Position numbers and translations under genes: made by a program. 64,000 bases of DNA from a virus: the IMG/VR virus record IMGVR_UViG_3300027754_000044. One strand, written 5' to 3'. Each line of letters opens with the position of its first letter. The stretch's first letter is position 1. Below the pieces are notes generated by a model. The model was not told where the DNA came from, made no database searches, and saw nothing but the letters and a program-made list of their open reading frames with translations. This document shows, in pieces, positions 1-43,106 of this stretch.

Positions 1-301
1 CTGAACCACTAAGAGATTTCGCTAGAACTATTCCACTACCGAACGATGTGCTGTATGCGTTTTTAATGTCGGTATTTGGTTCATACGAAAATAAGATATT
101 TTCGTCAGAAATTGTTATCTCTTTTTTTTCTGAAAACATCAAATAATCAGCAAGCCCTACAGACGGACGACCATCTCGTCCTGCCTGAACAACTAGGGCT
201 GCTGGATTTTTCAAAACTGCACCAGAAATTTCTGATGAACGCGATGCATCTGCTACAACTTCTTCACCATTCACGAGTCTAATAACAATAACATTATCCA
301 T
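1..301 (-). CDS. Small conserved T4-like hypothetical protein (Sm-like fold type), runs off the window edge
   Basis: Manual translation MDNVIVIRLVNGEEVVAD...YSTSFGSGIVL; the 'L..GEEVVA' start and 'FGSGIV' end resemble T4-like Sm-like proteins; absent from the ORF track because it is truncated. Confidence 0.6.
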   Translation of the reverse strand, partial: MDNVIVIRLVNGEEVVADASRSSEISGAVLKNPAALVVQAGRDGRPSVGLADYLMFSEKKEITISDENILFSYEPNTDIKNAYSTSFGSGIVLAKSLSGS

Positions 302-776: not shown

Positions 777-1232
777 TTATAATTCGTTCTGTGGGGGTTG
801 CACTGGAGCAGGCTTACCACCAAATCCTGTAACAACTGGAGCTTGCGGAACTGGTGTAGTGGCAGCTGGCTCTGGAACTTTATATGGCATATTCGCGCCT
901 GAAGATGACGTGATAGAAGGCGCAGACACAGGAGCAGGAGAAACAGTGGTAGGTCTCGTAGCCGCTTGTAACGCCATCTTCTGAGCGTCTTTATCATTAC
1001 CCGCTAACATAATTCCAGATAAGGTTCCAGTTAAGAATGTTGCGATAGGGATAATTAATTCAAAGAATTTTTGATCGATTGGAGACATAGCGTTCAATGG
1101 TTGTGTTACAAAAATCAAAGAATATAACACAACGAAAACGATTCCAAATAATGTCAAAGACAGGCAGATACCAATAAAAAATTTAAGACGAGCCATCAAT
1201 TCTTCTTCGGTGTATTTTATATTATTTTCCAC
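777..1232 (-). CDS. Two-TM membrane protein with Pro-rich tail (lysis-cassette associated)
   Basis: Probable GTG start at 1232 with AAGGAG SD; two hydrophobic helices; overlaps the upstream gene. Confidence 0.6.
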   Translation of the reverse strand: MENNIKYTEEELMARLKFFIGICLSLTLFGIVFVVLYSLIFVTQPLNAMSPIDQKFFELIIPIATFLTGTLSGIMLAGNDKDAQKMALQAATRPTTVSPAPVSAPSITSSSGANMPYKVPEPAATTPVPQAPVVTGFGGKPAPVQPPQNEL

Positions 1233-1515
1233 AGTGTGCTCCTTGCGAAACAGTTGCATTACATGTTGAACTTTTTGTAATATCTGTTTTAGTTTGTTCA
1301 TCTTTAGGTGGTCCTAATCTTGGGTCGCGCTGGCCTTTAAAAATATGTTCAGGGCACGTGCGATTCACATCACATATTGGAAGTTTACAAATATCCTTTT
1401 CCCAATTACTAGGATCTTGACAAGGATAACGATATCTATCACCACTGAAAATTGCTAAGGTCAATGGTAATAATAACAATAAACCCAACCACTTTACTAA
1501 TTTTATATCATTCAT
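1222..1515 (-). CDS. Membrane-anchored Cys-rich protein, possible spanin-like lysis accessory
   Basis: N-terminal hydrophobic segment then RYRYPCQDP..C....C.....C; directly after the endolysin. Confidence 0.5.
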   Translation of the reverse strand: MNDIKLVKWLGLLLLLPLTLAIFSGDRYRYPCQDPSNWEKDICKLPICDVNRTCPEHIFKGQRDPRLGPPKDEQTKTDITKSSTCNATVSQGAHCGK

Positions 1516-1517
1516 AA

Positions 1518-2147
1518 CTAAACACCTAATACATGTAGAGCATGATTATAGTGTTTGATTCTATCTTCTAATCCAATCGTTCCGCCGTTAATGCGTTTTG
1601 TTAGTGTTAGTATATCGCCTTTGTCGGCCCACTGATTCAAGTTATTGGTTTCCCAAAACCAGCATGCAGATTGAGCAGCACCTTCAAATGTTTGAAGATA
1701 CTCAGCTGCGTCTTCTACGGCGATATTAACAGACGCCGCAAACCATGAGTAATTATCTTTTCCAGTGAGTTGAATTAGACCACGACCACAGTAACGGAAA
1801 CCATCTCCTGATGCTTCATCACCATTGCCCATTCGATTGGCATAGACTTTATTTGCGATGGCTTCTTGTTTATTTGGTTTGTTTGCATATTCGTTCGCAA
1901 TTTCATCCGTTGGAAAATACTTCGGAAAAATCTTACGCAACGTAACAGCACGATAATTTAAATTTTCTTTCAGCGTAGTGAAACCACCAGATTCATGTGC
2001 GCATTGAGCCATAAAAGCAGCAACTCTTTGCGGTGTTGAAATTTCATAATCTGGAAGCAATACGCATAATGCTCCATACCATGCGTCCAAATACGGAGAC
2101 TTTGGAAGAATTTCTTGTAGGTGTTTCCTTGTGAATACGAATGTCAT
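1518..2147 (-). CDS. Glycoside hydrolase family 19 endolysin
   Basis: AAFMAQCAHESGGF, ENLNY, GRGLIQLTG, TKRINGG..GL.DR motifs; start moved to 2147 on the basis of an AAGGAG SD. Confidence 0.9.
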   Translation of the reverse strand: MTFVFTRKHLQEILPKSPYLDAWYGALCVLLPDYEISTPQRVAAFMAQCAHESGGFTTLKENLNYRAVTLRKIFPKYFPTDEIANEYANKPNKQEAIANKVYANRMGNGDEASGDGFRYCGRGLIQLTGKDNYSWFAASVNIAVEDAAEYLQTFEGAAQSACWFWETNNLNQWADKGDILTLTKRINGGTIGLEDRIKHYNHALHVLGV

Positions 2148-2170
2148 AGAAAATATTCTCCTTAATTTTC

Positions 2171-2202
2171 TATTTATAAGAGGGGGAAGTAAATCCCCCT
2201 CT
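2171..2202 (-). promoter_or_regulatory. T4-type late promoter TATAAATA (2171-2178) preceded by a 9-bp stem hairpin (2179-2202)
   Basis: AGAGGGGGA-tttact-TCCCCCTCT then TATAAATA, upstream of the endolysin. Confidence 0.75.
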
Positions 2203-2206
2203 AATT

Positions 2207-2308
2207 TCACATATTATAGATATTTTTTTTCCTAGCAGTCATTCGAAGTTTTCTAACTTCTTTCAGATAGAAAGATATAGAATTACAAAATTCGATAATT
2301 TTAGCCAT
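2207..2308 (-). CDS. Possible 33-aa basic peptide overlapping the hsp20 end
   Basis: MAKIIEFCNSISFYLKEVRKLRMTARKKNIYNM; GGAGG SD inside the hsp20 3' end; fills the gap. Confidence 0.45.
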   Translation of the reverse strand: MAKIIEFCNSISFYLKEVRKLRMTARKKNIYNM

Positions 2309-2771
2309 GATTAGCCTCCGTTAAAAATTCTTTAGTTGAATTTTGAGAGGCGTTAATCTCAATCTTTTTTGGCTTTTTGTTGTCGGGAACAACATACTCC
2401 AAAGAAATTTTGAGCATACCATTAACTAAATCTGCATTTCGAATTTCAACATTATCTGCCAATTCAAACTTTCGTTTGAAAGAACGATCTGCAATTCCTT
2501 TGTGTAGGAATTCAGCTTTAGAATCGTCAGGTTTTGTCGATGCTGAAACCATTAGGCATCCATTAGTCAGTTCGATATCAATATCTTCTTTCGAGAATCC
2601 AGCGACAGCTAATTCAAGAACGTAGGAATTCTTTTCTGTCTTTTTGATATTGTATGGAGGATAACCTGGAATGGCTTTACCAAGCGCGGTATTGAAAAGT
2701 TCTAGACGATCAAACATCTTATCATAACCAATTGAGAACGGATCAAATTTATGTAGGTCAAACATTGTCAT
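2301..2771 (-). CDS. hsp20: Small heat-shock protein (Hsp20/IbpA family)
   Basis: YPPYNI, LAVAGF, FLHKGIA.R.F.R.F.LA, A.L.NGML.I motifs; SD spacing favours the ATG at 2771. Confidence 0.95.
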   Translation of the reverse strand: MTMFDLHKFDPFSIGYDKMFDRLELFNTALGKAIPGYPPYNIKKTEKNSYVLELAVAGFSKEDIDIELTNGCLMVSASTKPDDSKAEFLHKGIADRSFKRKFELADNVEIRNADLVNGMLKISLEYVVPDNKKPKKIEINASQNSTKEFLTEANHG

Positions 2772-2776
2772 ATACA

Positions 2777-2864
2777 TCTCCTTATATTAAGCAAGATTAA
2801 AATTAAGCCCCCGAAGGCAGCTTATTCAGAGACAACCAACCGATTGCCTCTAAATTTATTTATA
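2777..2864 (-). promoter_or_regulatory. hsp20 leader: late promoter (2857-2864), two hairpins and a ROSE-like SD-sequestering stem
   Basis: TATAAATA; hairpins 2828-2851 and 2805-2823 (cUUCGg loop); UCUUGCUUA-AUA-UAAGGAGA at 2777-2796. Confidence 0.7.
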
Positions 2865-2872
2865 ACAGATTT

Positions 2873-3277
2873 TTAAACGGATCGTTTTTTTCCTATGTTA
2901 TATTTCTGTTCCAGAATCCATTCGCCCTTTTCTTTATGGGAAAGGATCTTTATTTGAGAAATTGGCGCGACAAGTTCTTTGGTTTTTTCTGGGTAGATGA
3001 GTTTATATAGATTCCATTCAGCTAGAAGATTGGCTATGGTGTTTCTTCTTGCTATATCGTCTTCAGAAAAATTGGTAGGCTTTCCATCCAACGCAAAAAG
3101 TTCTTTGAAGTGAACAATGAAATATCTATTTTGTTTGTGTAGTATGTGACAAGACTGAAATAGTTTCTTATCTTTTTTTGAGGCCACACCTATGCGTGTT
3201 AAAGTTTCGCGAATCTTCAGAAAATCATCTGGAGTTTCTAAGAGAACTTCAATCATTTGGTCGATTATTATAGTCAT
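2873..3277 (-). CDS. regA: Translational repressor RegA
   Basis: DDFLKIRETLTRIGVAS, QSCHILHKQ.RYFIVHFKELFALDG; TATAAATA upstream at 3305-3312. Confidence 0.97.
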   Translation of the reverse strand: MTIIIDQMIEVLLETPDDFLKIRETLTRIGVASKKDKKLFQSCHILHKQNRYFIVHFKELFALDGKPTNFSEDDIARRNTIANLLAEWNLYKLIYPEKTKELVAPISQIKILSHKEKGEWILEQKYNIGKKRSV

Positions 3278-3317
3278 TATGCACCTTTAAACACATATAT
3301 CTAGTATTTATAATAAT

Positions 3318-3713
3318 CTATTTTTTCGTGCCCCCTGTATAAAGCGATTCTTTAAGAGATTGAATGTGTTCTTTAGTTAATATCCTAGAAGCATCAATGG
3401 CTTTCTTTAGATTGCACTTATAAACTTCACGAATAATATCTACATTTTCGGATTCTTCTGGCTTCATCCATTTACTAAATCGTTTGCGGCTACGAAGACT
3501 GTTCATGTAGAAGTCGTATTGCAATAGATTGTCTAGATGACCAAGTCGATTCATTTCGTTAGAATACAAAATAGAATCCGCATGGAACGATAACGATCGA
3601 TTTGCTAAAAAAGGTTTGTATTCTTTTTCAGAAAGCTCGTCATTATCCGTTCCGCGCATCATATCCTTTTTGAGATGACTTACACTGTTAATGTAATCGA
3701 ATGGACTACTCAT
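3318..3713 (-). CDS. gp62: Clamp loader small subunit
   Basis: Y.PFLANRSLS, NEMN, QYDFY.NSLR.RKRFSKW; synteny with gp44. Confidence 0.93.
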   Translation of the reverse strand: MSSPFDYINSVSHLKKDMMRGTDNDELSEKEYKPFLANRSLSFHADSILYSNEMNRLGHLDNLLQYDFYMNSLRSRKRFSKWMKPEESENVDIIREVYKCNLKKAIDASRILTKEHIQSLKESLYTGGTKK

Positions 3714-4657
3714 TATTTGAACTGACAGTCAGCCATGATGGAAGTCAAACAAGCAGCGATGTTTATTTCCTGATCCACAACGAATGCGCTCTTGTATTGA
3801 TAGTCGCCGAGAGTCAAAACTAATTGAGGAACTGATTCTGGCTTCAAGTAATCATACGCAGTTTCATACAATTTACGAAAGAGTGTATTCGTTTCCATTG
3901 CATTATTCTGAGCAACCCATTTGCGCATAGAAGTGAAATCACGATCCTTAAGATACTTGATAATGTCTTTCAAATCTACATCTGCGACTTGAGCTAAAAT
4001 TCCGGCATCGATTTTACCATTCGCTGCATGACGTTGTAGTTCATTTAGAACACGCCGCCAGTCTGGAAAGAATTTAGTAATGAGCTGTGCAACAACTTTC
4101 TTGTCATATTCGATTCCTTCTTTTTCAAGAATCATATAAGTCCTTTGAAGGAATTGAGTAGCCAATTCAGCTTTCTCTTTTCCTTCAATCTTGAAATCAA
4201 CAACTGAACATCGAGAATGTAAAGGCGCAATGATTCTATTCTTGAAGTTACAAGTTAGAATAAACCCACAGTTGTTTGAGAACTCTTCCATAAAATTACG
4301 GAGAGCTGGCTGAGTTGAATTAGCATTTAGATAATCCGCTTCATCCAATATGACATACTTCCGGTCAGAAGTAAAGGAAACAGTCGCAGCGTAATTTCGA
4401 ATATCATTACGAAGTGTATCAATATTACCATTCATCGATCCATTAATGATAATATAATCACCATTAATTTCATCCAGCATAGCCCTGGCGACTGTCGTCT
4501 TACCGACTCCAGGCCCACCATTCAATAGCAGATTCGGAATTGCCTTATCATCAACAAATTTTTGGAATATTGTCTTTAGACTATTGGGTAGAATGCAATC
4601 TGCGATTTTATGGGGGCGATATTTTTCAACGAATAAAAATTCTTCACGATCAAGCAT
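3713..4657 (-). CDS. gp44: Clamp loader large subunit
   Basis: EKYRP, Walker A GPGVGKT, ILDEAD, SRC motif. Confidence 0.97.
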   Translation of the reverse strand: MLDREEFLFVEKYRPHKIADCILPNSLKTIFQKFVDDKAIPNLLLNGGPGVGKTTVARAMLDEINGDYIIINGSMNGNIDTLRNDIRNYAATVSFTSDRKYVILDEADYLNANSTQPALRNFMEEFSNNCGFILTCNFKNRIIAPLHSRCSVVDFKIEGKEKAELATQFLQRTYMILEKEGIEYDKKVVAQLITKFFPDWRRVLNELQRHAANGKIDAGILAQVADVDLKDIIKYLKDRDFTSMRKWVAQNNAMETNTLFRKLYETAYDYLKPESVPQLVLTLGDYQYKSAFVVDQEINIAACLTSIMADCQFK

Positions 4658-4699
4658 GTATACTCCATAATATAAATTTAATTCAGACTACATTTAAAA

Positions 4700-5362
4700 T
4701 CAATTTACGCGAGAACCTTGTTCGGTTGCAATCCAATACTCGACATCTCCTGTCTTAGATTTAAAGTTAGCGATGCCTTTAGCAGAAATCGTCACATCAT
4801 AATCTCGCGGTAGCAATTTCAAATTCTCTACTTTGAAAATCATATTATAATTCATAGAGCAAGTGCCAACGGGATAGTCAAAAGTATTTCCGTTGCTTGT
4901 TCTAGAATCAATAGCGGTCATGGATACTACTCCGTCTTGACCTAGGAGAGCGATTTCTGGCAATGACATAACACCTGCAGCTTTGAGCGCATAAGCCATA
5001 ACGTCTTTTTCGATCGTGAATGTTACGTCTACACTTGGAAGAACAATATCTTTTTCCGGCGGTGTTGTGATCGTAGCTGCACTTGCATACGCGTATGTCG
5101 CAGAAGCTTTTTTGTTCTTGATCTTTAGAAGATTTTCTTGAAAATCAAGTTCCGGATCTTCGAACATCGACGTCATGCTGAGTAATTCTGGAAGATTGTA
5201 AATTGCACATTCTTTCGGAAAGGTCTCTGCTACAGTCGCTTGAGCAAGAATAGTTTTCTGGGCAGAAACAGTTCGGATTTTATTACCCGGTTTCAACAAA
5301 ACAGACATGTTAATAGAAGAAAAGTTTTTTAGAATCTCAATTGTTTCATTAGAAAGTTTCAT
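4700..5362 (-). CDS. gp45: Sliding clamp
   Basis: MKLS.ETI.ILKNFSSIN, IYNL.E, Y.V.IS, YWIA.E; synteny. Confidence 0.95.
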   Translation of the reverse strand: MKLSNETIEILKNFSSINMSVLLKPGNKIRTVSAQKTILAQATVAETFPKECAIYNLPELLSMTSMFEDPELDFQENLLKIKNKKASATYAYASAATITTPPEKDIVLPSVDVTFTIEKDVMAYALKAAGVMSLPEIALLGQDGVVSMTAIDSRTSNGNTFDYPVGTCSMNYNMIFKVENLKLLPRDYDVTISAKGIANFKSKTGDVEYWIATEQGSRVN

Positions 5363-5386
5363 TTGTTACTCCATTATTAAAATACA

Positions 5387-5415
5387 ATTATAACACACCT
5401 AAATCTAAATGTAAA
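5387..5415 (-). promoter_or_regulatory. Sigma70-like promoter for the gp45 operon
   Basis: TTTACA-N17-TATAAT. Confidence 0.6.
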
Positions 5416-6273
5416 TCACTTTTTCTTTTTCTTCTTCAACATACTCACATCAGCCGTAGCAGTTACTCCAAGATTCGCTAAGTCGACCAAGGATCCACCG
5501 AAGACATAAGTGCCTTGATGTTCAAGTTTCATCCAAGGACACAGCCAAACTTTGATTCCGGCATCACGTGAATACTGACAGAACATATAATCTTCAGAAA
5601 GATATCGTTTTGTTTTCGGATCGATTACGCAATCGAAATACGCATGAATCTCTCGCGATCCATCAAAATGTTCAGTGCGAACATGATCTGGCTTATATGA
5701 AAGATGAGGATACGCCTTTTTGTATTTCTCAAACACACCGCGCTGAATCATCATGAATCCAGTTCCACCTTCTAGAACTTCTACTGGCTCATTCAATGCG
5801 ATCGACTCTTGACCGTCTGTGGGATTGAAAACATAATCACCAACATATTTCTCTAGATCTTGAGGATTTTTATCTGCGAATCCGCGATCAACAGCTTTCT
5901 TAATCTTTTCCCAAGAAATACATTTCTTTGGGTATGGACCACAAACAACTTCTTTATCGCTACCTGTTGCAGCAATTACAGAAAGAGCGATTACGTCGTC
6001 TGGATCAAATCCGATATCTGCATCGATAAACATCAAATGCGTGCAATCGCTCCGAAGGAATTCGTCAACGAGATAATTTCTGGCTCGCGTTATTAGCGAC
6101 TCGTTATATAGATAGAAAAATCTGACATCCATTCCGTATTTGGAAGAAAGTATTGCTAGGTCCGCAGACGATTTGCAATATTGTCCGGTGCACATTCCGC
6201 CATACATTGGCGTAGCAATAAAAATTTTTCTTTTGCGTAGTTCTTCAATAGACACTGAAATTTCTATAGACAT
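5416..6273 (-). CDS. GT-A fold glycosyltransferase-like protein
   Basis: IATPMYGG, ESLITRARN, FIDAD (DxD), GTGFMMI.R, LSEDY.FC; late promoter TATAAATA at 6306-6313. Confidence 0.75.
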   Translation of the reverse strand: MSIEISVSIEELRKRKIFIATPMYGGMCTGQYCKSSADLAILSSKYGMDVRFFYLYNESLITRARNYLVDEFLRSDCTHLMFIDADIGFDPDDVIALSVIAATGSDKEVVCGPYPKKCISWEKIKKAVDRGFADKNPQDLEKYVGDYVFNPTDGQESIALNEPVEVLEGGTGFMMIQRGVFEKYKKAYPHLSYKPDHVRTEHFDGSREIHAYFDCVIDPKTKRYLSEDYMFCQYSRDAGIKVWLCPWMKLEHQGTYVFGGSLVDLANLGVTATADVSMLKKKKKK

Positions 6274-6344
6274 AATTTTTCACCTTTTGCTATCATTCAA
6301 ACATTTATTTATATCAAAAATTCAGTATAATTTAAATCTATGAT

Positions 6345-6375
6345 AAAAAAACAGGGATGCCTATAGGCATCCCTG
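6345..6375 (-). terminator. Rho-independent terminator
   Basis: CAGGGATGCC-TATA-GGCATCCCTG followed by T7. Confidence 0.9.
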
Positions 6376-6387
6376 CCCAATTGCAGA

Positions 6388-6645
6388 TTACGCAGCGAGT
6401 GCGCGATAACCAGCAGCAATAACGCGACGTGTCGGAGCGCCATGCTTGTAGACTGACGCAACTTGACCATTCGAAAATGTCTTGCGATTGCAATAAATCG
6501 CATAACCTTTTTGGCGAAGGTACGAAGCTACAGCCGACATGTTGCTGATTCCGAATCGTGCCTTGGCTTGACCTTCGGTGAGATCATAACCTTTCTTCAG
6601 GAACGAAAGGACACGTGCTGTTTTGCTAGTTTTGGTTTTAACCAT
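6388..6645 (-). CDS. Small basic winged-HTH-like protein
   Basis: VLSFLKKG.DLT..QAKARFGI.N..A..S.LR..GY pattern; AGGAG SD. Confidence 0.65.
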   Translation of the reverse strand: MVKTKTSKTARVLSFLKKGYDLTEGQAKARFGISNMSAVASYLRQKGYAIYCNRKTFSNGQVASVYKHGAPTRRVIAAGYRALAA

Positions 6646-6675
6646 ATTTTGAAACTCCTATTTAAATTTAAAAAC

Positions 6676-7869
6676 CTACGCAACGATTTGCGGCGTAGTC
6701 TCCTGCACACCAGACTCAATACTACTATCTGATGCTACTGAAGGCGGTTGTGCTACGGTTTCATCTACCTTGGAATATAGATCCAGAAAGGCAGTTTTTG
6801 TTTCTTCATCGAAACGATTGATACACATACGGATAGAACGCATACGATCACCAAAGAGCTTGTATGTCTGAACAATGTGAACAAGACGACGCGTAGAGAT
6901 AACTTCATCAATCGCATTTTCTGCGAACGTCTTTCGAATCACTTCAGCCCACATGATGAGTTTATCTACAAACTTAGATTCATCTTCTATCATCTGACGA
7001 TTATCAGCGAAATACAGATTCAAAATTTTTCGTTCAACAGTAGCATTTGGAAACTGCTGCTCGATCGTGATCGGAAATCGTTCAAGCCATGCGTCATCCA
7101 ACATCGTTGCAGAAACATAACGACCATCTTCAGAACCTTTACCTTTAGTATTGGCTGTTACGATAATATTGAATCCAGTCTGGGCATAAACAACTTCACC
7201 AGTTTTCTTTACGAAATATGGCTTGCCTTCAAGGACTCCTTGCAGACACATGATCTTGCCTGGATCTGCGCGGTCCGCTTCGTCTAAGAGAAGCAATGCA
7301 CCAAGTTCCATTGCACGAAGGACAGGACCTTTAATGAATTTTGTTTCTCCGTTGATGAGTCGAAATCCACCCATCAAATCGTCTTCATCAGTTTCTTTAG
7401 ACAACTGAATACGAATCATTTTCGTATTAGAACGAGAAGCTGCTTGTTCAACCATAAACGTCTTACCGTTTCCAGACATTCCGGAAATAAATATTGGAAA
7501 AAATTGTTTTGATTTTATAATTTTTTCAATGTCTTTGAATTCTCCGAACGGAACATAATGCGAATCACGTTCTGGAACAATTGCATAATTGTGTGACGAT
7601 ACTGCGTTTGGATCAAAATGCATCTTTGCCTCAGTCTCGATCTTTGGGCTGCGAGTAATCGCAACAACTTGTGCAGCCATATTAATGGGTGTAGATTTCA
7701 GGTCTGAAGGCAATTGAAACTTACCCCAACCCACGTTGAATTTTTTCCGATAAAGAAATTTTGCATTATCGTAACCAAGAGACTGAACATACTCTTCGAT
7801 ATCTTTTTTACGAAGAACTGCACTCTTACCAAATTTCTTAATAAGCTCTTCAAGAATAACTTGTTTCAT
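6676..7869 (-). CDS. cobS: MoxR-type AAA+ ATPase (CobS-like)
   Basis: GMSGNGKT, ETDEDDLMGGFRL, LLLDEAD, TANTKG.G, ISTRRLVHI. Confidence 0.9.
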   Translation of the reverse strand: MKQVILEELIKKFGKSAVLRKKDIEEYVQSLGYDNAKFLYRKKFNVGWGKFQLPSDLKSTPINMAAQVVAITRSPKIETEAKMHFDPNAVSSHNYAIVPERDSHYVPFGEFKDIEKIIKSKQFFPIFISGMSGNGKTFMVEQAASRSNTKMIRIQLSKETDEDDLMGGFRLINGETKFIKGPVLRAMELGALLLLDEADRADPGKIMCLQGVLEGKPYFVKKTGEVVYAQTGFNIIVTANTKGKGSEDGRYVSATMLDDAWLERFPITIEQQFPNATVERKILNLYFADNRQMIEDESKFVDKLIMWAEVIRKTFAENAIDEVISTRRLVHIVQTYKLFGDRMRSIRMCINRFDEETKTAFLDLYSKVDETVAQPPSVASDSSIESGVQETTPQIVA

Positions 7870-7904
7870 TTTATTTCCATTATATAATTGATACGGGAGT
7901 TACT

Positions 7905-7935
7905 ATTATACTTCACTCACAGCTAATTGTCAAGG
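7905..7935 (-). promoter_or_regulatory. Early sigma70 promoter
   Basis: CCTTGACAATTA...; TTGACA-N17-TATAAT. Confidence 0.85.
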
Positions 7936-7940
7936 CAAAT

Positions 7941-10052
7941 TTATGCGGCAATTTTCTCAATAAATTTTGATAAGAGAACTCGACTAACACCACGGCGAAT
8001 ATTGACTTTTATAAATGCCTTCGCGAGAGAATTTTTGGTCTCATAAACTTCATCACCCAACAAAGAATCCTCAGTTTGAATTTCGTCACCACCATGAATC
8101 AAGAAATAATCATCAAATTTCAGATACCCTTTCATGTGAAAATATTTTTGTTTCCGCATTTTTCTGTAATTTATATCTGATGTTTCGCTTTGATTAGGAT
8201 ATGCTAAATTAATTGTTCTTTTGATTCGTGAATTTGAATTTTCAATACGATAGCAAATTACATTAACTGAGCATCGATTTTTGAGAAATTCAACAAAAAC
8301 ATTAGTGTTAGTCTCATAGTCATCAGTTGATTTTTTTTGTATTACAATTTCTTCTTTTGTCTGGATATCGCGAGCAACTAATTTATATTTGTAGTGATAT
8401 GTTAAATTATTATATCCAACGTCAGTCCTATAATGGCTAACAGTAGATTCACCATCAGTCATAACAACACAATTAACTATTTGTGCATTTGTCTGTTTTT
8501 TGAAATCTACGATCAATTTACGAGCATAAATCAATGCTGAATTTAACGGTGTGCCATTTAAATGAATACAATTAGAATACCATGAATCATTTCCTAGTTT
8601 ACGAAATTTCCAATTTTTCTGATTACATCCATCTGCAAAATTCAAAAGCCATTGACCCATTTCAGAAAACTGATTATTTCGCATTTTTTCCGTGAAGAGT
8701 TCTATTAATTTATCTGCACCCTTTACAGAAATATCACCTATCTTATCATCGAGAAACTCAGGACTCTGCATATATTTTTCAGATATCGTTTGATCAGTAA
8801 ATGCATAAACACGATGTGGAATATTAACCCTGCGGCAAAATAAAGTCAAGCACAATAATTGTTCAATTGTTCCTAGCATATTTTCTGTCATAGATCCAGA
8901 AAAATCAACAAAAAGAACTAATCCATGATTTTTAGATTCTGGCAATATTGTTGTTTTTTTGAAGATATCATCAATGATCTTATATGCATGTAGTTTATTA
9001 CAATTAATAACCCCTGTTTTTGATTCACGCTGTCTAATATAATGATCAGCAGCTTTTTTCATTTCAAATTCTTTAACGAGATAAGAAACGACTTTACTGT
9101 TTACATTCAAGAATTTATTCCAAGAAATCTTATTTTGTTTGGCGATTTTAGAATTTAAATCTTTAGATAAATCATCATTGTTTGAATGATTTCTGAATCT
9201 ATACATGTATTCAGATTTTATATATGCGTCTTTTTCATCTCTAAACATCTGAAGAAGAGATGAAAAAGGGAGAGTTATATTTTTATATTCTTTATCTTGA
9301 ACATTTACATAATAAATTGGTTTTGATTTATCATCAATCAATTGTTCTGCAATAGTATCATCCATTGATGTTTGTGTATCACAGGAGAATAGATCTTGAT
9401 CTTGATCTTCTTCGTCTTCTTCTGTGAAAAACTCATCACTTTCCATATGTTCTGATTGATCTTCATCCTCATCTTCATCAATCTGGATGAAGATATCACC
9501 ACCGCGTGTATCTCCTTCTTCTTCTTTTTTCTTCAAGAATTCAAATATCCGATGTGTGATATCCACAACTTCATCCCAAGTTTTGGCAGATTCAGTATCA
9601 TCGACAAAACATTTTTCATCTTCTTGAAACATAATATTCTGGAATGATCCTATCTTAAAATGCAGATTTAGGCGATCCAAGAAATTCATGGTTTCTATAT
9701 TTTTTTCTTTGATCTTGAAAAAATCTTTATCAAAGAGCTCTTTATATCCTTCATAAAAATCACGGCGAAGACCTGGATATTTGATCTTCATTTTACGCTC
9801 AATTCGAGCGTCTTCTACGATATTACATATAGTCTTTTCTTCGGTAACCAAACCACTCCAACCAGAATCGGGAGTATACAAAGCGTGACCAACTTCGTGA
9901 CCTACTAATAGAGTTTCTAATGTGGGGGTGATATCTTTCCACATTGGGAGAGTTAGAATTCGATTTTTGGTATCGAAAGAAGCTGTAGGCGCGTTACGAT
10001 GCTCAACAACAATATTTTCTGTTGCTAGGAGCTTTGCAAGTTTGTCGATCAT
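7941..10052 (-). CDS. CobT-like partner protein: N-terminal HExxH metallopeptidase-like domain plus vWA domain
   Basis: LLATENI.VEH, HEVGH, N.VEDARIE, acidic linker, MIDAS DFSGS, GTPLN, MTDGE; adjacent to cobS. Confidence 0.85.
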   Translation of the reverse strand: MIDKLAKLLATENIVVEHRNAPTASFDTKNRILTLPMWKDITPTLETLLVGHEVGHALYTPDSGWSGLVTEEKTICNIVEDARIERKMKIKYPGLRRDFYEGYKELFDKDFFKIKEKNIETMNFLDRLNLHFKIGSFQNIMFQEDEKCFVDDTESAKTWDEVVDITHRIFEFLKKKEEEGDTRGGDIFIQIDEDEDEDQSEHMESDEFFTEEDEEDQDQDLFSCDTQTSMDDTIAEQLIDDKSKPIYYVNVQDKEYKNITLPFSSLLQMFRDEKDAYIKSEYMYRFRNHSNNDDLSKDLNSKIAKQNKISWNKFLNVNSKVVSYLVKEFEMKKAADHYIRQRESKTGVINCNKLHAYKIIDDIFKKTTILPESKNHGLVLFVDFSGSMTENMLGTIEQLLCLTLFCRRVNIPHRVYAFTDQTISEKYMQSPEFLDDKIGDISVKGADKLIELFTEKMRNNQFSEMGQWLLNFADGCNQKNWKFRKLGNDSWYSNCIHLNGTPLNSALIYARKLIVDFKKQTNAQIVNCVVMTDGESTVSHYRTDVGYNNLTYHYKYKLVARDIQTKEEIVIQKKSTDDYETNTNVFVEFLKNRCSVNVICYRIENSNSRIKRTINLAYPNQSETSDINYRKMRKQKYFHMKGYLKFDDYFLIHGGDEIQTEDSLLGDEVYETKNSLAKAFIKVNIRRGVSRVLLSKFIEKIAA

Positions 10053-10079
10053 GATTTTTTTCCGTAATTTAACAATACC

Positions 10080-10110
10080 ATTATACTATCATGAAGGTTA
10101 ATTGTCAAGG
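10080..10110 (-). promoter_or_regulatory. Early sigma70 promoter
   Basis: CCTTGACAATTA...; TTGACA-N17-TATAAT. Confidence 0.85.
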
Positions 10111-10111
10111 C

Positions 10112-10816
10112 CTATTTTATTGCTAAAAATCCTACAAACGCATGGTTTTGCCAAAAAGATTCAATTTTGCTAAAACCTGCAGCTTTGCACATATTTAGTA
10201 ATTCTTTACGGGTGTTTGGTTTAGCCATCGACCGCAAAGTTTTTTCTTTATCCATAATATCGTCAGTTGTGAAACTTTTTCTTTTATAGTCGTAATATGT
10301 AAAAGTTCTAATATCTTGAATTTTTGCAGAGTCCGCCATGGTCTTCTCAGAAAAAACGAATGCACCACCGGAATTTAATCCATTATATACATTTTTGATA
10401 ACTTCCATTCGCTGATGCGGTGGCATAAACATCAGAGTGAAGATCGAAGAAACGAAGGAACAATTTTCAAAATCATAATCTCGAACATCAATATTGTAAA
10501 AATACAAATTTGGTATGAAATTTTCTTTCGTTGAAGACGTCCATTCATCTGACCGTTTCGGCCATTCTTCAGCGAATTTTTCTTCTAGTTCAATTCCAAT
10601 ATACGATGCTCTTTTAGAAAAAGAATTTTGATTGATCATAGTTTTCAACATTTTTCCAGTAGAGCAACCAATATCAACGACTTTTGTATCATCTTCCACA
10701 AAATATTCTGAAAGTTTCAATACATCGTCTATAAGATTAGAATACCCTCGTATAGACAAATCTATGTGTGTATCGAATCCTTCAGAACGTTGTGCGAATG
10801 TAAAAGGTTGTGTCAT
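10112..10816 (-). CDS. cmoA: CmoA-like carboxy-SAM synthase
   Basis: F..HI..SIRGY, DIGCSTG, FTLMF, L.SGGAFVFSEK, DYKR, AGF..IE.FWQ...F.G..A.K are collinear with E. coli CmoA as recalled. Confidence 0.82.
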   Translation of the reverse strand: MTQPFTFAQRSEGFDTHIDLSIRGYSNLIDDVLKLSEYFVEDDTKVVDIGCSTGKMLKTMINQNSFSKRASYIGIELEEKFAEEWPKRSDEWTSSTKENFIPNLYFYNIDVRDYDFENCSFVSSIFTLMFMPPHQRMEVIKNVYNGLNSGGAFVFSEKTMADSAKIQDIRTFTYYDYKRKSFTTDDIMDKEKTLRSMAKPNTRKELLNMCKAAGFSKIESFWQNHAFVGFLAIK

Positions 10817-12024
10817 GATATATCCTTGTATGGTTTCAATATATTTTTATAAACGTGGCTTGCTAAAGCGAACATCATCTTCGGAGCAACCATTCTTCCG
10901 ATGCGCTCTGCTTGTTGATCGAAAGTTCCTGTCAATTCATAATCATCAGGAAGGCTCATTATACGCTTCAATTCTTTAATTGTCAACTTGCGATCTTCAT
11001 TATAATGTATAACGCCCGATGCACCTTTTTGTTGACCTGTCTGTGTTAAAGTCGGACACGGAAGATGTCGAGCTGGTCGTTTCAAATTGAAACAAGTTTC
11101 TTTTGGCTGAAGAACTTTAGGTGGATTTTTTGGTAACAAACCCACAAACTTTTTCAGGAACCCATTTTCAACAACATCTAATAGTTCTTTCACTTCTTGT
11201 GGGTCATTAACTATATCTCCAATCGCTTTTTCTATAGCAACTTCTTTAGAATATTTTCCATGTTCTTTCGGAGTAGATGGGTTTGGAAATACCACGCTAT
11301 TGACATTTAAAATGTTCAATCCGATTGAATTAGCAACATCATCCCTCACACAAACAAAGAACGTTCTTTGTCTACTCTGTGCAACTCCATACTCTGCAGC
11401 ATTCAATACTTTATATGTGGTAAGATATCCGATCTTTTCGAATCCATTAATGAACTCAGCTAATTTAGCTCTAGCTGTATCCATTGTTAATCCCTTCACA
11501 TTTTCAGCAATGATCACTTTAGGTTTTATATCTTTCGCGATCCTAATAAACTCATTGAAAAGATCCTCAATAGCTTCTACTGTCTTCCCGTCAGAATACG
11601 ACTTTATGCCAGAATGAACTTCAATCGAACCTTCGTGGATCATCTCTCCGTCATCATCAAAATATGATTTTCGAGTATCTAAAATTGCGCCCTTCCAATT
11701 CTTTCCTTTAGACGAAGAAGAAACAGAAAATGCAGAACACGGAGGCGAGCCATCAAATATATCTAATTCGCCTTCTTTTAACCCAGATACATCAAGAAAA
11801 TCTTTTCCAGAAAGTTTTTTTATATCACCTGGAATAATTTTAGTGTCTGGGAAATTTAATGAATATGTCTTAATAGCTTCCTCAACAAATTCATTTATCG
11901 CAAGAACATTTCCACCAGCCAAACGATATCCAGTAGATGATCCACCTCCACCAGCAAATGTAGAAATTACAGTGAATAATTTTTTCGATGATTCTGAAGT
12001 AACATCACTTTTAAAGTATGGCAT
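10813..12024 (-). CDS. C5-cytosine DNA methyltransferase-family enzyme, probable carboxymethyltransferase
   Basis: FAGGGG (I), GSPPC (IV), ENVKG (VI), QSRQR (VIII), motif X variant IGRMV; ATGA overlap with the cmoA-like gene. Confidence 0.9.
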   Translation of the reverse strand: MPYFKSDVTSESSKKLFTVISTFAGGGGSSTGYRLAGGNVLAINEFVEEAIKTYSLNFPDTKIIPGDIKKLSGKDFLDVSGLKEGELDIFDGSPPCSAFSVSSSSKGKNWKGAILDTRKSYFDDDGEMIHEGSIEVHSGIKSYSDGKTVEAIEDLFNEFIRIAKDIKPKVIIAENVKGLTMDTARAKLAEFINGFEKIGYLTTYKVLNAAEYGVAQSRQRTFFVCVRDDVANSIGLNILNVNSVVFPNPSTPKEHGKYSKEVAIEKAIGDIVNDPQEVKELLDVVENGFLKKFVGLLPKNPPKVLQPKETCFNLKRPARHLPCPTLTQTGQQKGASGVIHYNEDRKLTIKELKRIMSLPDDYELTGTFDQQAERIGRMVAPKMMFALASHVYKNILKPYKDIS

Positions 12025-12559
12025 TTTGTCTCTGTTTTTGTTTCATGTAAATTTTTTGTTTGCGTTTTGCTTTTTCTACATGATATGGTTTAGCCGTATT
12101 CGTATAGAGTATTCCTTGCAGATGATCATATTCGTGCAGGAATACTCTAGCGGTCATACCATCAAATTTTATTGTATCTGTAAAATTTTCACAAGTTGTA
12201 TATCGAACACGAACTGCGCTATTACGTTTCATCCGAATAAATAGCCCAGGGAATGTCAGACATCCTTCGTCATAGTAAACATCTTTTCCTATCTCTTCGA
12301 TAAGTTTTGGATTAAATACTGGTATGATGGAAGATCGATCTGATGGATTTCCCATAATAAAAACATTCAAAGGAATACCACATTGCGGAGCAGCTAATCC
12401 TATGCCTCGCTCTTTACACATAAGATCACACATACTTTCGAATAATTCTTTTGGATCATAGATTCCAACCACATCAAAATCAAAATCTTCAGCTTTTTGA
12501 CGGAGGATAGGATGATCTGCACTCACTAAAGATAATTTCATAATTCCATCCTTGTCCAC
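12011..12559 (-). CDS. def: Peptide deformylase
   Basis: GIGLAAPQ, EGCLT, HEYDHLQG. Confidence 0.95.
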   Translation of the reverse strand: MDKDGIMKLSLVSADHPILRQKAEDFDFDVVGIYDPKELFESMCDLMCKERGIGLAAPQCGIPLNVFIMGNPSDRSSIIPVFNPKLIEEIGKDVYYDEGCLTFPGLFIRMKRNSAVRVRYTTCENFTDTIKFDGMTARVFLHEYDHLQGILYTNTAKPYHVEKAKRKQKIYMKQKQRQNAIL

Positions 12560-12753
12560 TCTTTACCACAAACTAAACATTCCATTATTCCTATTCTAGA
12601 ACAAGTTTCACTAACAACATTTCCGTGTTTATCATAAACTTCAGTTTGATGCATCGGAGTAAATTTCTCACCCTTAACTATTCTGCAATCAACGCGATCA
12701 CAATCCACAATAGGTGAATTAGATCCATATTCAGATAAAAATTCTTTTGTCAT
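12538..12753 (-). CDS. Hypothetical Cys-containing small protein
   Basis: ORF overlaps both neighbours; CxxC near the C-terminus. Confidence 0.5.
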   Translation of the reverse strand: MTKEFLSEYGSNSPIVDCDRVDCRIVKGEKFTPMHQTEVYDKHGNVVSETCSRIGIMECLVCGKEWTRMEL

Positions 12754-13421
12754 ATAATCTCCAAATTTCCAGAAATAGATATTCTGTATTCATCACTCGT
12801 ATAAAACGGATATACAGCATGTTGCATTTTTGCATCAAAAATAATCATAGTATCCTGACGCGATTTATCTACAATTATCGAATGCTGATTAACACCAGAC
12901 CTTGCAAGATGATCGGGATAATTAAAAATGAAATTTCCTGCAACAATTGTGTTTCCGACATCAGCAAGCTCTTTTTCTTTTTCTATATCGTATGGTATCT
13001 TATGCCATATTACGAAAGAAAGATCTCCACCATGATGATGGAGTGGATTAATTTCATACTTCTTTTGAAAATTAATCCATAAATCTTTAATGGGATAACC
13101 ATATTCTTCGCTTATTTTTTTACTAATCGCCAGTCTATGTTCTTTCTGTGCGTTCGGATGATCCCAATAATCCCAATATCTAGGAGCCACGACTTTTAAA
13201 AATTGATCCAAATAATCCACGCTTTCCGTCAAAATATATTCATGACGAATGGATCCTGCCAAATGCGGATTATAACTAATGCAATCTCTAAAATCAGTTG
13301 CCAACATTCTCTGAACTTCAACTTCTATACATTGCGTAACACTAGGAGGAACTGGACACGAAGCATATCCAAGTTTGTATATTTCGTTAAAAGATACAGA
13401 TATATTTTCTGATTCACTCAT
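12750..13421 (-). CDS. Putative 2OG-Fe(II) oxygenase (TIGR02466-like)
   Basis: WINFQ...NPLHHH...LSFVIW, H.VYPF, RISISGN. Confidence 0.75.
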   Translation of the reverse strand: MSESENISVSFNEIYKLGYASCPVPPSVTQCIEVEVQRMLATDFRDCISYNPHLAGSIRHEYILTESVDYLDQFLKVVAPRYWDYWDHPNAQKEHRLAISKKISEEYGYPIKDLWINFQKKYEINPLHHHGGDLSFVIWHKIPYDIEKEKELADVGNTIVAGNFIFNYPDHLARSGVNQHSIIVDKSRQDTMIIFDAKMQHAVYPFYTSDEYRISISGNLEII

Positions 13422-15127
13422 AATGATATCCTAGAAAAGTTTTTATGTTTTTCAAATTTGATCGTGCTTCTAAATTTATCCTGCATGATATCGCCTTTAT
13501 GTGATATCACGAATACATTTGCATCTTCTAAACTGTGGATTAGTTTCAAAAACTCTTCACATCCATTCGCGTCCAACGATGCGTCGAAAACTTCATCCAA
13601 TATAAGGAGATTTGTATTTGCACTATTTTTCATCCTAGCGATTGTTCTCCACGTGAAAAGTAAAGCCAAATCTATTCTCATCTTTTCACCCTCACTGAAT
13701 GAATCGTAAGTGAAGTCGTCTCTATGTCTAGAAAGAATCGTTTCCTCAAAAGATTCGTCTAATTGAAACTTAACAAAGAAATCCATTGCAGCTAGATATT
13801 TGTTAATCAGAGAATTCATAATCGGAATATATTGCTTGATGATTCGTGACTTAATTCCACCATCCCTCAGTATGATGCCAGCTAATTCATACAATTCTTT
13901 TTTATGCAGAAGTAAATCTTTTGTTAATTTTAACTCATCCAATCGCTTTTGGATTTCGTCGATCTCAACATCAGTTTCTGTTTCTTTATCCGCTGTGGTA
14001 TCCGAGATTTGCTTTTGCAAAATAGCAATTTCACGTTGATCCGCGAGAACAGAAGCTGACAAATCATTTGTAATCCTTCGCTCCTTACCTTTGATGTTTC
14101 TATTAATCTCAGATATTTCCTGCTGCCTATTTTGAGTCTCACTGAGTTCTTTTCCAAGAACAATAAGCGCGTCGCTAATCTTATCCAATGTCGATTGCTT
14201 TTCAGAAATTTTAGTGGACTTGATACTCGTGTCGATCGTCTGAGTGCAGGTAGGACAATTATCGTGTTCTTCATAAAATTTTATAGTCTTTTTGGCTTTA
14301 GTTTTGGTAGATTCTAAATCGCTCTCTAATAATTCGATCTTAGATATTCTCTTAATCACTTTGGATTCATCTTGAATACTGATCAATAGCTCATCAATCT
14401 CATTTTGAACTATAGTGATTTCTCCATTCACCCTGTCAACATTTGACTGTAGTTCAGATATTCTATCGATGGCGAGAGCGACAATCTCATTTTTCTTTTC
14501 ACTATTTTTTTTCTTTTGTTTCTCGTGTAGCTCTAATATGTCTGTGGAGTTTTGAATGTCGTTTTTATTCGTTAAGATGTTATCTTTATTACCGGATATC
14601 CTATCCTTCAATAAAACAGACATCGTAGAAAAGATTCGAATGTCTAAAAGATCTTCAATCACTTCTCTGCGAACTCCTGCGGGGAGTTGCATGAATGGAA
14701 CAAAAGATGATGATCCTAAAATTACGATCTGAGTGAACGACTTCATGTTCATTCTCAGAATATTCTTCTCTAGATACTCCTGATAGTCTCTACTAGCAGC
14801 GTCCTGATCTAATAAAGCACCATTCTGATATATTTCAAAAATCGTAGGTTTTATTCCGCGAATAATTTTATATTTCTTGTTGTATATTTCGAATTCAATT
14901 TCAACAACAACATCGCGACCATTTATGGAATTGATGAGCTGATCTTTTTTGATCTTACGAAAAGGCTTACCATAAAGAACGAAACAAAGAGCATCTAGAA
15001 CTGAAGATTTTCCAGCACCATTTTCTCCAACAACTAGAGTATTTGTATTTCTATCTAATAGAATCTCTGTAAAGGCGCTTCCTGTAGACAGTAAATTTTT
15101 CCATCTAACAGATTTAAATTTTAGCAT
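13418..15127 (-). CDS. gp46: Recombination endonuclease ATPase subunit (Rad50/SbcC-like)
   Basis: GENGAGKS, CPTC hook, FSEGEKMRIDLALL, LILDE, ISH. Confidence 0.97.
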   Translation of the reverse strand: MLKFKSVRWKNLLSTGSAFTEILLDRNTNTLVVGENGAGKSSVLDALCFVLYGKPFRKIKKDQLINSINGRDVVVEIEFEIYNKKYKIIRGIKPTIFEIYQNGALLDQDAASRDYQEYLEKNILRMNMKSFTQIVILGSSSFVPFMQLPAGVRREVIEDLLDIRIFSTMSVLLKDRISGNKDNILTNKNDIQNSTDILELHEKQKKKNSEKKNEIVALAIDRISELQSNVDRVNGEITIVQNEIDELLISIQDESKVIKRISKIELLESDLESTKTKAKKTIKFYEEHDNCPTCTQTIDTSIKSTKISEKQSTLDKISDALIVLGKELSETQNRQQEISEINRNIKGKERRITNDLSASVLADQREIAILQKQISDTTADKETETDVEIDEIQKRLDELKLTKDLLLHKKELYELAGIILRDGGIKSRIIKQYIPIMNSLINKYLAAMDFFVKFQLDESFEETILSRHRDDFTYDSFSEGEKMRIDLALLFTWRTIARMKNSANTNLLILDEVFDASLDANGCEEFLKLIHSLEDANVFVISHKGDIMQDKFRSTIKFEKHKNFSRISL

Positions 15128-16191
15128 TCATCCAGTTCCATAGATAAAGACTCAGTATATAACGAATGCATTAATTTGTCAAGGTCTTTTTTATCAACAT
15201 TGGTTTCTAAGTTTCCAACATATTTGGACAAAATTGTTAAAGTGTCTTCAGCTTCGTTGGCTAAGTCATTTGTGTCGATGTCGTTCATATTTCTGTGATC
15301 GTCAACAATCGTAACATCTGACGGAGATGCTTCGTAAATTTTATTTACAAACAAGTCAAACCAATAAGGATTGGTTTTATTCTGAACAATGACTTTCACG
15401 TATGAAGATTTCAAATGATCAAAATTTTGGCTTAGAAGTTTATCTAGCGTCTGTTCAGCGTCGTCATACCAAACTTTATAAAACATCTTATTCGTGTTTT
15501 CAATAAATTCTAGTTCTCTAGTTTCAGTATCCCATATATGAAACCCGCGAGGATCTCCATGATCTGACCAAGTTATTTCATAAGGAGTTCCTACATATTT
15601 GATGTTTCCACTTTCTGATTTTCTATGAAAGTGTCCAGAAAACACAGTATCAAATTTATCAAATTTAGAAACATCAAATCCGTCATGAGAAGGCATTCCC
15701 CTATACATCTCAAAGCCCTTTATTTCTAAATGACCAAATAAAATTTGAGCCTTAGTTGTCTTCATTATATCCATGCATTCTTCATAGTTAGAACTATTAA
15801 TCCATGGCATCATTAATACTTTACAACCATCAATTTCTATTTCTTTAGGATCAGCATAAGAATTAAGAGAGGTGTGTTCAGAAAATAATTCATTCATCGA
15901 ATTTATAGAATTCGTGTTCCTAAACGGAACGTCATGGTTTCCAATAAGAACGTGTAGGGTAATATTGTTGTCTCTGTGTTTATCAATAAACGATTTGAGT
16001 TTATTCAGAGTCAAATAATTGATGAACTTTCTACGATCAACGATATCTCCAAGCTGAATAACTTCACTAATCCCGCGTTTCTCTAATTCTGGAAAATAAA
16101 TTTCCTCAAAAAATTTGTCGAAATAAGAAAGAAATTCTTGACTATCGTTCCTTGCGCCAAAGTGTAAATCTCCAAGTATGGCTATTTTCAT
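15121..16191 (-). CDS. gp47: Recombination endonuclease subunit (Mre11/SbcD-like)
   Basis: GDLHFG, GD.VDRR, GNHD, GHLE, SGHFH. Confidence 0.97.
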   Translation of the reverse strand: MKIAILGDLHFGARNDSQEFLSYFDKFFEEIYFPELEKRGISEVIQLGDIVDRRKFINYLTLNKLKSFIDKHRDNNITLHVLIGNHDVPFRNTNSINSMNELFSEHTSLNSYADPKEIEIDGCKVLMMPWINSSNYEECMDIMKTTKAQILFGHLEIKGFEMYRGMPSHDGFDVSKFDKFDTVFSGHFHRKSESGNIKYVGTPYEITWSDHGDPRGFHIWDTETRELEFIENTNKMFYKVWYDDAEQTLDKLLSQNFDHLKSSYVKVIVQNKTNPYWFDLFVNKIYEASPSDVTIVDDHRNMNDIDTNDLANEAEDTLTILSKYVGNLETNVDKKDLDKLMHSLYTESLSMELDEC

Positions 16192-38100: not shown

Positions 38101-38152
38101 CCTTGACAATTAGTTATCTTCATGATATAATACAGGTGTTCCGAGGGATCAT
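38101..38152 (+). promoter_or_regulatory. Antisense-oriented sigma70 promoter element, copy 2
   Basis: CCTTGACAATTAG..TATAAT (17-nt spacer) then ACAGGTGTTCCGAGGGATCAT. Confidence 0.75.
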
Positions 38153-41138: not shown

Positions 41139-41843
41139 TTAAAATACCCTCCAGTTTGATATTGGCTGAGTTCCTGTTGGATTCGATGAAATATCACGAT
41201 AGCATATAATAAAATCTCCAGCTAGGCATATTCTTTGTTGAAATAATTCGTCTTCGTCAAATGCTTCAACGATCGTTTCTGTTTCTGAATCAAATCCTAC
41301 GTTGTCGTGTTTTAATTTTCCAGGAAAAACAAAAAGATCGCCTTCTTTCACATTTTGTGTCCACGTGGCTGCATTGAATTGATTAAAATTATTATTGCAG
41401 TTCCAATGAGACATCTCAAAATACAAATCATTCATATTTCCATATTTTCTGTGAAATCTTAGAGGTCTATCGAGTCCTTTTGGAATATTAATGTAGTATG
41501 TGAAAACAACATGCGCGTCACCATGACTATGAATATTGGATTTAGTTCCAGAAACACTCAGCCACGATTTTACGAGAAATAGATCATACAATTGATCGTC
41601 TACGTTCATTGATCGTATATACTCTCTGGCGCAATCTGATGCGAAACGAAATATTGGAGAATATGAATCTACAGTATGCAGACTTACATGCTTCGTATTT
41701 TCACCAACGCCAATGACACTAGGAGTAGTTCCATTATTTCTAATATAATCAAAGATCGTCTTTTTAAATTGATCTTTGAATATATCATGATCCGGAAATT
41801 TCCACTCGCCGTATAATGTTGGAAATATTTCATGCTTTATCAT
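41139..41843 (-). CDS. Putative 2OG-Fe(II) oxygenase (TIGR02466-like)
   Basis: IFPT start, KSW, HSH, YY, EGDL.VFP..L.H, RI.LAG. Confidence 0.75.
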   Translation of the reverse strand: MIKHEIFPTLYGEWKFPDHDIFKDQFKKTIFDYIRNNGTTPSVIGVGENTKHVSLHTVDSYSPIFRFASDCAREYIRSMNVDDQLYDLFLVKSWLSVSGTKSNIHSHGDAHVVFTYYINIPKGLDRPLRFHRKYGNMNDLYFEMSHWNCNNNFNQFNAATWTQNVKEGDLFVFPGKLKHDNVGFDSETETIVEAFDEDELFQQRICLAGDFIICYRDISSNPTGTQPISNWRVF

Positions 41844-43084: not shown

Positions 43085-43106
43085 ATAATTAATTATAACG
43101 ATTCGG

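Follow-up and report, generated by a model that had tools for sequence, protein, structure and literature searches.

A predicted CmoX-CmoA-CmoY cytosine carboxymethylation system in a T4-like phage, with its cassette divided between two sites

We analyzed a 64,000-nucleotide stretch of viral DNA (IMG/VR record IMGVR_UViG_3300027754_000044; hereafter, the window), in which two adjacent minus-strand genes, cmoX and cmoA, encode putative orthologues of a DNA cytosine C5-carboxymethyltransferase and a carboxy-S-adenosylmethionine (Cx-SAM) synthase (Table 1). The pair was located in the early replication/recombination block of a T4-like myovirus. The two genes overlapped by 4 nucleotides; positions 10813-10816 read TCAT on the plus strand, so the cmoX stop codon and the cmoA start codon share ATGA on the coding strand, an arrangement by which the two genes are predicted to be translationally coupled. 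The initial annotation had described this overlap between a cytosine-C5 methyltransferase (C5-MTase) gene and a cmoA-like gene, together with an IGRMV sequence at motif X and an Arg codon at 10894-10896, and the open reading frame (ORF) list and our reading of the sequence agreed with it in every detail. The 403-residue protein additionally scored above the TIGR00675 cutoff in the profile search. As judged from the sequences, the family matches of CmoX and CmoA are strong, full-length homologies for which chance is excluded, and the locus is most probably the CmoX-CmoA pair of a phage cytosine carboxymethylation pathway.

In December 2025, Yang et al. (Nat Commun 2025; PMC12783734) experimentally described such a system, CmoA-CmoX-CmoY, in Synechococcus phage S-B43. 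They found that SpCmoA is a fast Cx-SAM synthase with a turnover number (kcat) of 2.33 per s and that SpCmoX, a C5-MTase homologue, transfers the carboxymethyl group from Cx-SAM to cytosine in the GC sites of duplex DNA. The resulting 5-carboxymethylcytosine (5cxmC) blocks HhaI (PMC12783734). SpCmoY, an asparagine-synthetase-like ligase, joins glycine to 5cxmC, and S-B43 virion DNA carries the base 5gcxmC (PMC12783734). In the structure of SpCmoX with Cx-SAM (Protein Data Bank (PDB) entry 8YF3), R350 takes the place of M.HhaI Asn304 and contacts the carboxymethyl group; the R350N variant is inactive, and wild-type SpCmoX accepts only Cx-SAM and not S-adenosylmethionine (SAM) (PMC12783734). This is the cyanophage report to which the initial annotation referred, and the M.MpeI N374K precedent invoked there is cited in it.

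Among PDB sequences, the best match to CmoX from the window was 8YF3, with an E value of 3.2e-113; M.HaeIII (E 4e-24) and M.HhaI (E 4e-16) followed far behind. CmoX was 55.8% identical to SpCmoX over 364 aligned positions. In the pairwise alignments, ERIGRMV of CmoX lay opposite ERVGRMV of SpCmoX, and IGRMV lay opposite IGNAV of M.HaeIII. Arg377 was thus aligned with SpCmoX R350 and with the M.HaeIII Asn, as expected if it replaces the cofactor-contacting Asn. In particular, F23, E45, F46, D67, C96 and R377 of CmoX corresponded to F25, E47, F48, D69, C98 and R350 of SpCmoX, the six residues that serve Cx-SAM binding and catalysis in that enzyme (PMC12783734); in its Cx-SAM pocket, F25, E47, F48 and D69 bind the adenine and ribose. 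All six were invariant in an alignment of 122 sequences, with Arg at motif X in 122 of the 122 family members examined, and the motif VIII Arg (QSRQR at residue 216) was also invariant. The SPPC motif with the catalytic Cys is one of the two criteria that were used to search for CmoX in PMC12783734. An AlphaFold model of CmoX (mean predicted local distance difference test (pLDDT) score of 85.2) revealed 8YF3 as the best structural match, with an E value of 3.6e-42 and a target-normalized template modeling (TM) score of 0.93, and M.HhaI as the next.

CmoX and SpCmoX differ in the length of the segment after motif IV, which comprised 52-54 residues in all of the 120 closest homologues versus 33 in SpCmoX. 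We had considered the extra residues as an oddity of this phage; this was rejected, as they are the norm in these homologues. The longer segment is standard in an abundant clade of 400-420 residues, of which CmoX is a member, and SpCmoX represents a short form. The members of this clade differ from SpCmoX in the post-motif-IV loop and the target-recognition region, which makes CmoX a reasonable candidate for other sequence specificities. The observed/expected ratio of the GC dinucleotide in the window was 1.2, which says nothing either way, and the inference of a target sequence from composition was dropped.

Co-occurrence of the motif X Arg with cmoA, proposed as a check in the initial annotation, was found. 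All 49 of the CmoX homologues that were readable at motif X in cmoA- or cmoY-linked loci had Arg, as did 120/120 of the closest database homologues. A homologue in Methylophilales phage Melnitz (L097:4001-5218, MZ577097.1; 38% identical), located between gp43 and uvsX, reads IGLMV, with Leu at this position, and the complete Melnitz genome contained no match to the window CmoA. Two genes of unassigned function (328 and 427 residues) follow the CmoX homologue in Melnitz. At E <= 1e-40, CmoX homologues were found in only ten GenBank phage records, none with more than 50% identity. Metagenomes contained more than 5,600 homologues. In the cultured freshwater Synechococcus phage S-CRM01 (L098:3297-5134), gp62 and regA flank a pair in which cmoA is followed by cmoX and which has no ligase gene as a neighbor, a placement which indicates that the cassette was inserted at several sites of T4-like replication modules.

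The CmoA homologue matched the E. coli CmoA structures 4GEK and 4IWN with E values of approximately 2e-24, the 4GEK match covering residues 5-234, and it was 51% identical to the assayed SpCmoA over 234 residues (E 1e-75). A tblastn search with E. coli CmoB found no homologue in the window at E <= 1, in agreement with the earlier statement that cmoB is absent from it. The proposal that the CmoA-like protein makes Cx-SAM and that the transferase places its carboxymethyl group on cytosine C5 was supported, since the S-B43 orthologues are 50-56% identical and the named active-site residues are kept. By analogy with S-B43, we consider it very likely that Cx-SAM would be made and 5cxmC written. Contig L085 was 96.6% identical to window positions 965-12488 and encoded a CmoX that was 100% identical at the protein level; its divergence was confined to a patch within cmoA (Table 1), identity being 97-100% elsewhere. 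Local mosaicism or a diversifying loop of CmoA may account for this patch.

The initial annotation had also suggested that the modified base might be a handle for further modification, and a CmoY orthologue was indeed found just outside the window. In the window itself, the best tblastn match to SpCmoY had an E value of only 0.49. An exact 50-mer from the window start had no match in the metagenome contigs, and a search with a window protein yielded only contigs shorter than 2 kb. Contig L099 (IMGVR_UViG_3300032282_001191), from the same sample as L085, was 98% identical to window positions 1-99. It contained gp43 (183-2684), a 139-residue ORF, a 271-residue ORF (3062-3877), a 295-residue ORF and uvsX, in that order. 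The product of L099:3062-3877 was a CmoY orthologue that was 52% identical to SpCmoY over 267 residues (E 2e-98) and carried the PP-loop SGGVDS and SGIAADGHYG. L099 places this gene, between gp43 and uvsX, approximately 2.96 kb before the window start and approximately 13 kb from cmoA. The 80-kb contig G001 (IMGVR_UViG_3300023184_000081) was collinear with window positions 16071-1520 at 82% nucleotide identity and had cmoX (92% identical), cmoA and cmoY at the same spacing; the G001 CmoY was 89% identical to that of L099 and matched PF00733.

When this CmoY was used to retrieve IMG/VR loci, cmoX directly followed cmoY in 48 of the 55 obtained, the usual order being gp43, cmoY, cmoX, cmoA and uvsX. 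The exceptions were the lineage of the window (L099, L100, L101 and L153) and L136, a contig that ends approximately 100 nucleotides past cmoY and showed no cmoX homologue in that stretch. The nearest outside relatives of CmoX (64-65%), CmoA (57-63%) and CmoY (62-65%) share contigs (L102-104, L139 and L149), which points to one ancestral cassette that was split within the lineage and not to a loss of function. The simplest reading of these gene orders is that cmoX-cmoA moved approximately 13 kb away, whereas cmoY kept its place in the hot spot between gp43 and uvsX. What is new here is a lineage with a split cassette in which cmoY does not adjoin cmoX-cmoA. Because the three-gene cassette can be split, ligase searches among immediate neighbors only could miss some cases.

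At the position where the relatives have cmoX-cmoA, a 295-residue ORF (L099:3861-4748, L092:2672-3559) overlapped the end of cmoY. Among the 55 CmoY loci, it was present only in this lineage, and its sole Pfam match was a weak one to Tetraspanin. Kinship with a 295-residue ORF in a PP-loop island of the window was considered and rejected, as the two were unrelated. A presence/absence test using 80 loci around a 174-residue protein (777-1301) was uninformative, as these loci were not syntenic with the window.

Table 1. Coordinates of the genes, motifs and predicted promoters in the window
Feature	Coordinates	Strand	Details
cmoX	10813..12024	minus	403 residues; DNA cytosine C5-carboxymethyltransferase orthologue (putative); PF00145 E 4.7e-53
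cmoA	10112..10816	minus	234 residues; Cx-SAM synthase orthologue (putative); TIGR00740 E 8.9e-33, full length
cmoX stop/cmoA start overlap, ATGA	10813..10816	minus	evident in the sequence itself
Motif I, FAGGGG, cofactor binding	11941..11958	minus	residue 23; Phe23 = SpCmoX Phe25
Motif IV, SPPC, catalytic Cys96	11737..11748	minus	S93-P94-P95-C96 = SpCmoX S95-C98; invariant 122/122
Flexible beta-rich segment after motif IV	11581..11736	minus	approximately 20 residues longer than in SpCmoX; model pLDDT <70, residues 97-148
Motif VI, ENV	11497..11505	minus	residue 174; Glu174 contacts cytosine N4 in the family; invariant 122/122
Motif X, IGRMV	10888..10902	minus	residues 375-379; Arg377 codon AGA at 10894-10896; Asn in ordinary C5-MTases
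Hypervariable patch inside cmoA	10400..10690	minus	contig L085: 45-85% identity per 100 nucleotides, 11-codon indel
gp47	15121-16191	minus	
gp46	13418-15127	minus	
2-oxoglutarate (2OG)-Fe(II) oxygenase	12750-13421	minus	followed by a 71-residue ORF
Peptide deformylase	12011..12559	minus	PF01327 E 1.4e-34; end overlaps cmoX start by 14 nucleotides
CobT-like gene	7941-10052	minus	after cmoA; labeled peptidase in PHROGs
CobS-like AAA ATPase	6676-7869	minus	
Five perfect promoter-type sites	7905-7933, 10080-10108, 10958-10986, 46866-46894	minus	
	38103-38131	plus	
Sigma-70-type promoter match	10958..10986	minus	inside the cmoX 3' end, 142 nucleotides upstream of the cmoA ATG
Second early-type promoter match	10080..10108	minus	immediately beyond the cmoA stop and before the CobT-like gene
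PP-loop (SGGxDS) ORFs	42260-43084 and 43991-45106	plus	no known family; no PHROG match

The genes surrounding the pair are listed in Table 1; further along the minus strand, the CobS-like gene was followed by gp45, gp44, gp62, regA, Hsp20 and endolysin genes. The overlap of the peptide deformylase gene with the start of cmoX makes these two genes part of one transcription unit. Between 6314 and 17410, no T4-type late promoter (TATAAATA) was found. The window contained five perfect TTGACA-N17-TATAAT sites, all of which had the extension TTGACAATTA (TTGACAATTA-N13-TATAAT), compared with 0.02 expected by chance. The five sites probably represent the early promoter consensus of this phage, in which the -35 hexamer is followed by a conserved ATTA. 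Given these perfect sigma-70-type matches and the lack of late promoters, cmoX and cmoA appear to be early-expressed, as predicted from consensus matches. The match inside the 3' end of cmoX suggests that cmoA may have an additional promoter of its own, which would fit the need for a Cx-SAM pool. The clamp loader was closest to those of Stenotrophomonas phage DLP_6 (60.5%) and Methylophilales phage Melnitz (59%), with the cyanophages at 56%; these nearest cultured relatives suggest that the host is probably not a cyanobacterium. For a 455-residue ORF in the structural region (29038-30405, minus strand), a tblastn search of 50,697 phage records gave no match at E <= 1e-5.

Taken together with the S-B43 experiments, these observations suggest the following pathway. 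CmoA would convert SAM and host prephenate into Cx-SAM, the carboxylate of which would be bound by Arg377 of CmoX. Cys96 would attack C6 of a cytosine in duplex DNA, and the carboxymethyl group would be transferred to C5, giving 5cxmC. CmoY, a putative asparagine-synthetase-like PP-loop ligase without a glutaminase domain, would most likely adenylate the 5cxmC carboxyl group and attach an amino acid, which in S-B43 is glycine. This would yield an amide such as 5gcxmC as the mature base, by which the DNA would be shielded from host nucleases. By analogy with SpCmoY, we lean toward the view that CmoY turns 5cxmC into an amide in vivo, with less assurance than for the formation of 5cxmC itself.

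Several points weigh against this pathway. The CmoA homologue scored 113.9 bits against TIGR00740, which is below the equivalog cutoff of 193.3 bits. Active SpCmoA was likewise under the cutoff, at 115.6 bits; hence, what the cutoff delimits is the bacterial tRNA clade and not activity, and the window CmoA was filed under a phage clade. In E. coli CmoA, Arg199 is the only contact with the Cx-SAM carboxylate, and the MAFFT alignment placed Glu191 of the window CmoA in this column. Active SpCmoA also has Glu there (Glu188). K190, K192 and R195 are within one helical turn of Glu191, a stand-in for Arg199 not being discernible from the alignment that places them there. As the sub-cutoff score and the Glu are common to active SpCmoA, they appear to mark the phage clade as opposed to the bacterial tRNA clade and not the presence or absence of activity. 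The target-recognition region of CmoX was only 45% identical to that of SpCmoX, so the GC specificity of SpCmoX may not carry over. In addition, cmoY was read on the near-identical contig L099, outside the window, and not on the window's own record. Orthology, active-site residues, gene arrangement and linkage were established here; all of the chemistry is carried over from S-B43. The supply of prephenate by the host is likewise assumed.

The alternative that survives best, although we consider it unlikely, is that CmoX and CmoA act as described but 5cxmC stays unmodified and the separated CmoY-like gene does something else. The distance of approximately 13 kb between cmoY and cmoA, where cmoY adjoins cmoX in 48 of 55 related loci, is consistent with this, as are the cmoA-cmoX pair of S-CRM01 without an adjacent ligase and the presence of a ligase in only 2,251 of 5,615 CmoX contigs (PMC12783734). 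However, the CmoY orthologue is intact and full length, with a retained PP-loop and 52% identity to SpCmoY, which has been assayed. It is also kept in every contig of the lineage that reaches the site (L099, L100, L101, L153 and G001), and the shared contigs of the closest outside CmoX, CmoA and CmoY relatives point to an intragenomic split and not to a loss of function.

We regard it as rather improbable that the carboxymethyl handle is turned into something different from the glycine amide of S-B43, such as another amino-acid amide or an oxidized or glycosylated 5cxmC. This was considered because CmoY is only 52% identical to SpCmoY and is separated from cmoX-cmoA. A Tet_JBP-domain protein (Tet/JBP-family dioxygenase) scoring 59 bits, above the cutoff, was encoded in G001 (G001:C1:69653-70144), approximately 50 kb before the window start; it may act on thymine or on a cytosine derivative. 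CmoX was the only PF00145 enzyme in the 80 kb of G001, and no ordinary 5-methylcytosine (5mC) methylase was present. In the window, a plus-strand island at 42260-45106, behind late promoters, comprised two PP-loop ORFs and the 295-residue ORF without a family match; a 2OG oxygenase lies on either side of the island (41139-41843 and 45584-46153). The two PP-loop ORFs were examined as CmoY orthologues and rejected, as they had only SGGxDS in common with CmoY, had no PHROG match and were located behind late promoters.

It is very unlikely that CmoA mainly drains host SAM to blunt SAM-dependent defenses, with DNA carboxymethylation as a secondary activity. Such a drain was raised as an open question in PMC12783734, and the perfect early promoter match assigned to cmoA would suit it, but in thousands of contigs cmoA occurs strictly together with a transferase of the Arg type, and the SAM lyases of phages are from another family. 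A SAM-drain role would, moreover, add to the carboxymethylation pathway and not replace it. The least probable alternative is an ordinary SAM-dependent 5mC methylase beside a CmoA that supplies Cx-SAM to host CmoB for the 5-carboxymethoxyuridine (cmo5U) modification of host or phage tRNA; the classical role of CmoA is in tRNA modification and PHROGs labels the family "tRNA methyltransferase", but the window lacks cmoB, wild-type SpCmoX refuses SAM (PMC12783734), the invariant motif X Arg occurs with cmoA whereas the Leu-bearing Melnitz homologue occurs without it, and the two genes are predicted to be translationally coupled.

The CmoX-CmoA-CmoY pathway therefore remains the preferred interpretation. 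Because the system was published for S-B43, the pair in the window is one more example; it is a further member of that system and not a discovery, and knowledge of the mechanism is unchanged. The initial annotation had suggested that novelty may lie in the lineage and the target specificity; PMC12783734 describes the system as widespread and already counts 5,615 candidate CmoX sequences across phage metagenomes (CmoA is on the contig for 4,257 and a ligase for 2,251), so lineage alone adds little. None of the window's contigs was among the supplementary files of that paper. The locus provides one well-documented natural CmoA-CmoX-CmoY example from a T4-like phage with a probably non-cyanobacterial host. 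Minor leads are the split cassette and the companion Tet/JBP gene of the relative G001; if true, another amide or an oxidized or glycosylated 5cxmC would be a new hypermodified cytosine.

The closest known systems include that of S-B43. Both S-B43 and the lineage of the window contain full-length CmoX (approximately 50-56%), CmoA (51%) and CmoY (52%) orthologues on a T4-like myovirus backbone without cmoB. In contrast to the contiguous order cmoX-cmoY-cmoA of S-B43, cmoX and cmoA overlap here, and cmoY is located approximately 13 kb away between gp43 and uvsX. Additionally, CmoX is approximately 20-30 residues longer after motif IV, its target-recognition region is 45% identical, and the host is probably not a cyanobacterium. 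Uncultured T4-like phages (IMG/VR L107-L152) share the three genes and the replication module and have them as uninterrupted cmoY-cmoX-cmoA cassettes at the gp43-uvsX hot spot, where the lineage of the window also keeps cmoY; in that lineage, however, cmoX-cmoA lies between the peptide deformylase and CobT-like genes, and a 295-residue gene follows cmoY. As in M.MpeI N374K, replacement of the motif X Asn by a basic residue would enable Cx-SAM use by a C5-MTase; M.MpeI carries an engineered Lys and is CG-specific, whereas the window encodes a natural Arg enzyme of another lineage with its own Cx-SAM synthase. Finally, the CmoA/CmoB pathway of E. coli, which forms cmo5U in tRNA, has in common with the window the CmoA fold, a full-length match (30% identity) and the metabolite Cx-SAM. 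It differs in that CmoB is absent here, Arg199 is not conserved in the alignment, and the predicted acceptor is cytosine C5 of DNA instead of 5-hydroxyuridine (ho5U) of tRNA.

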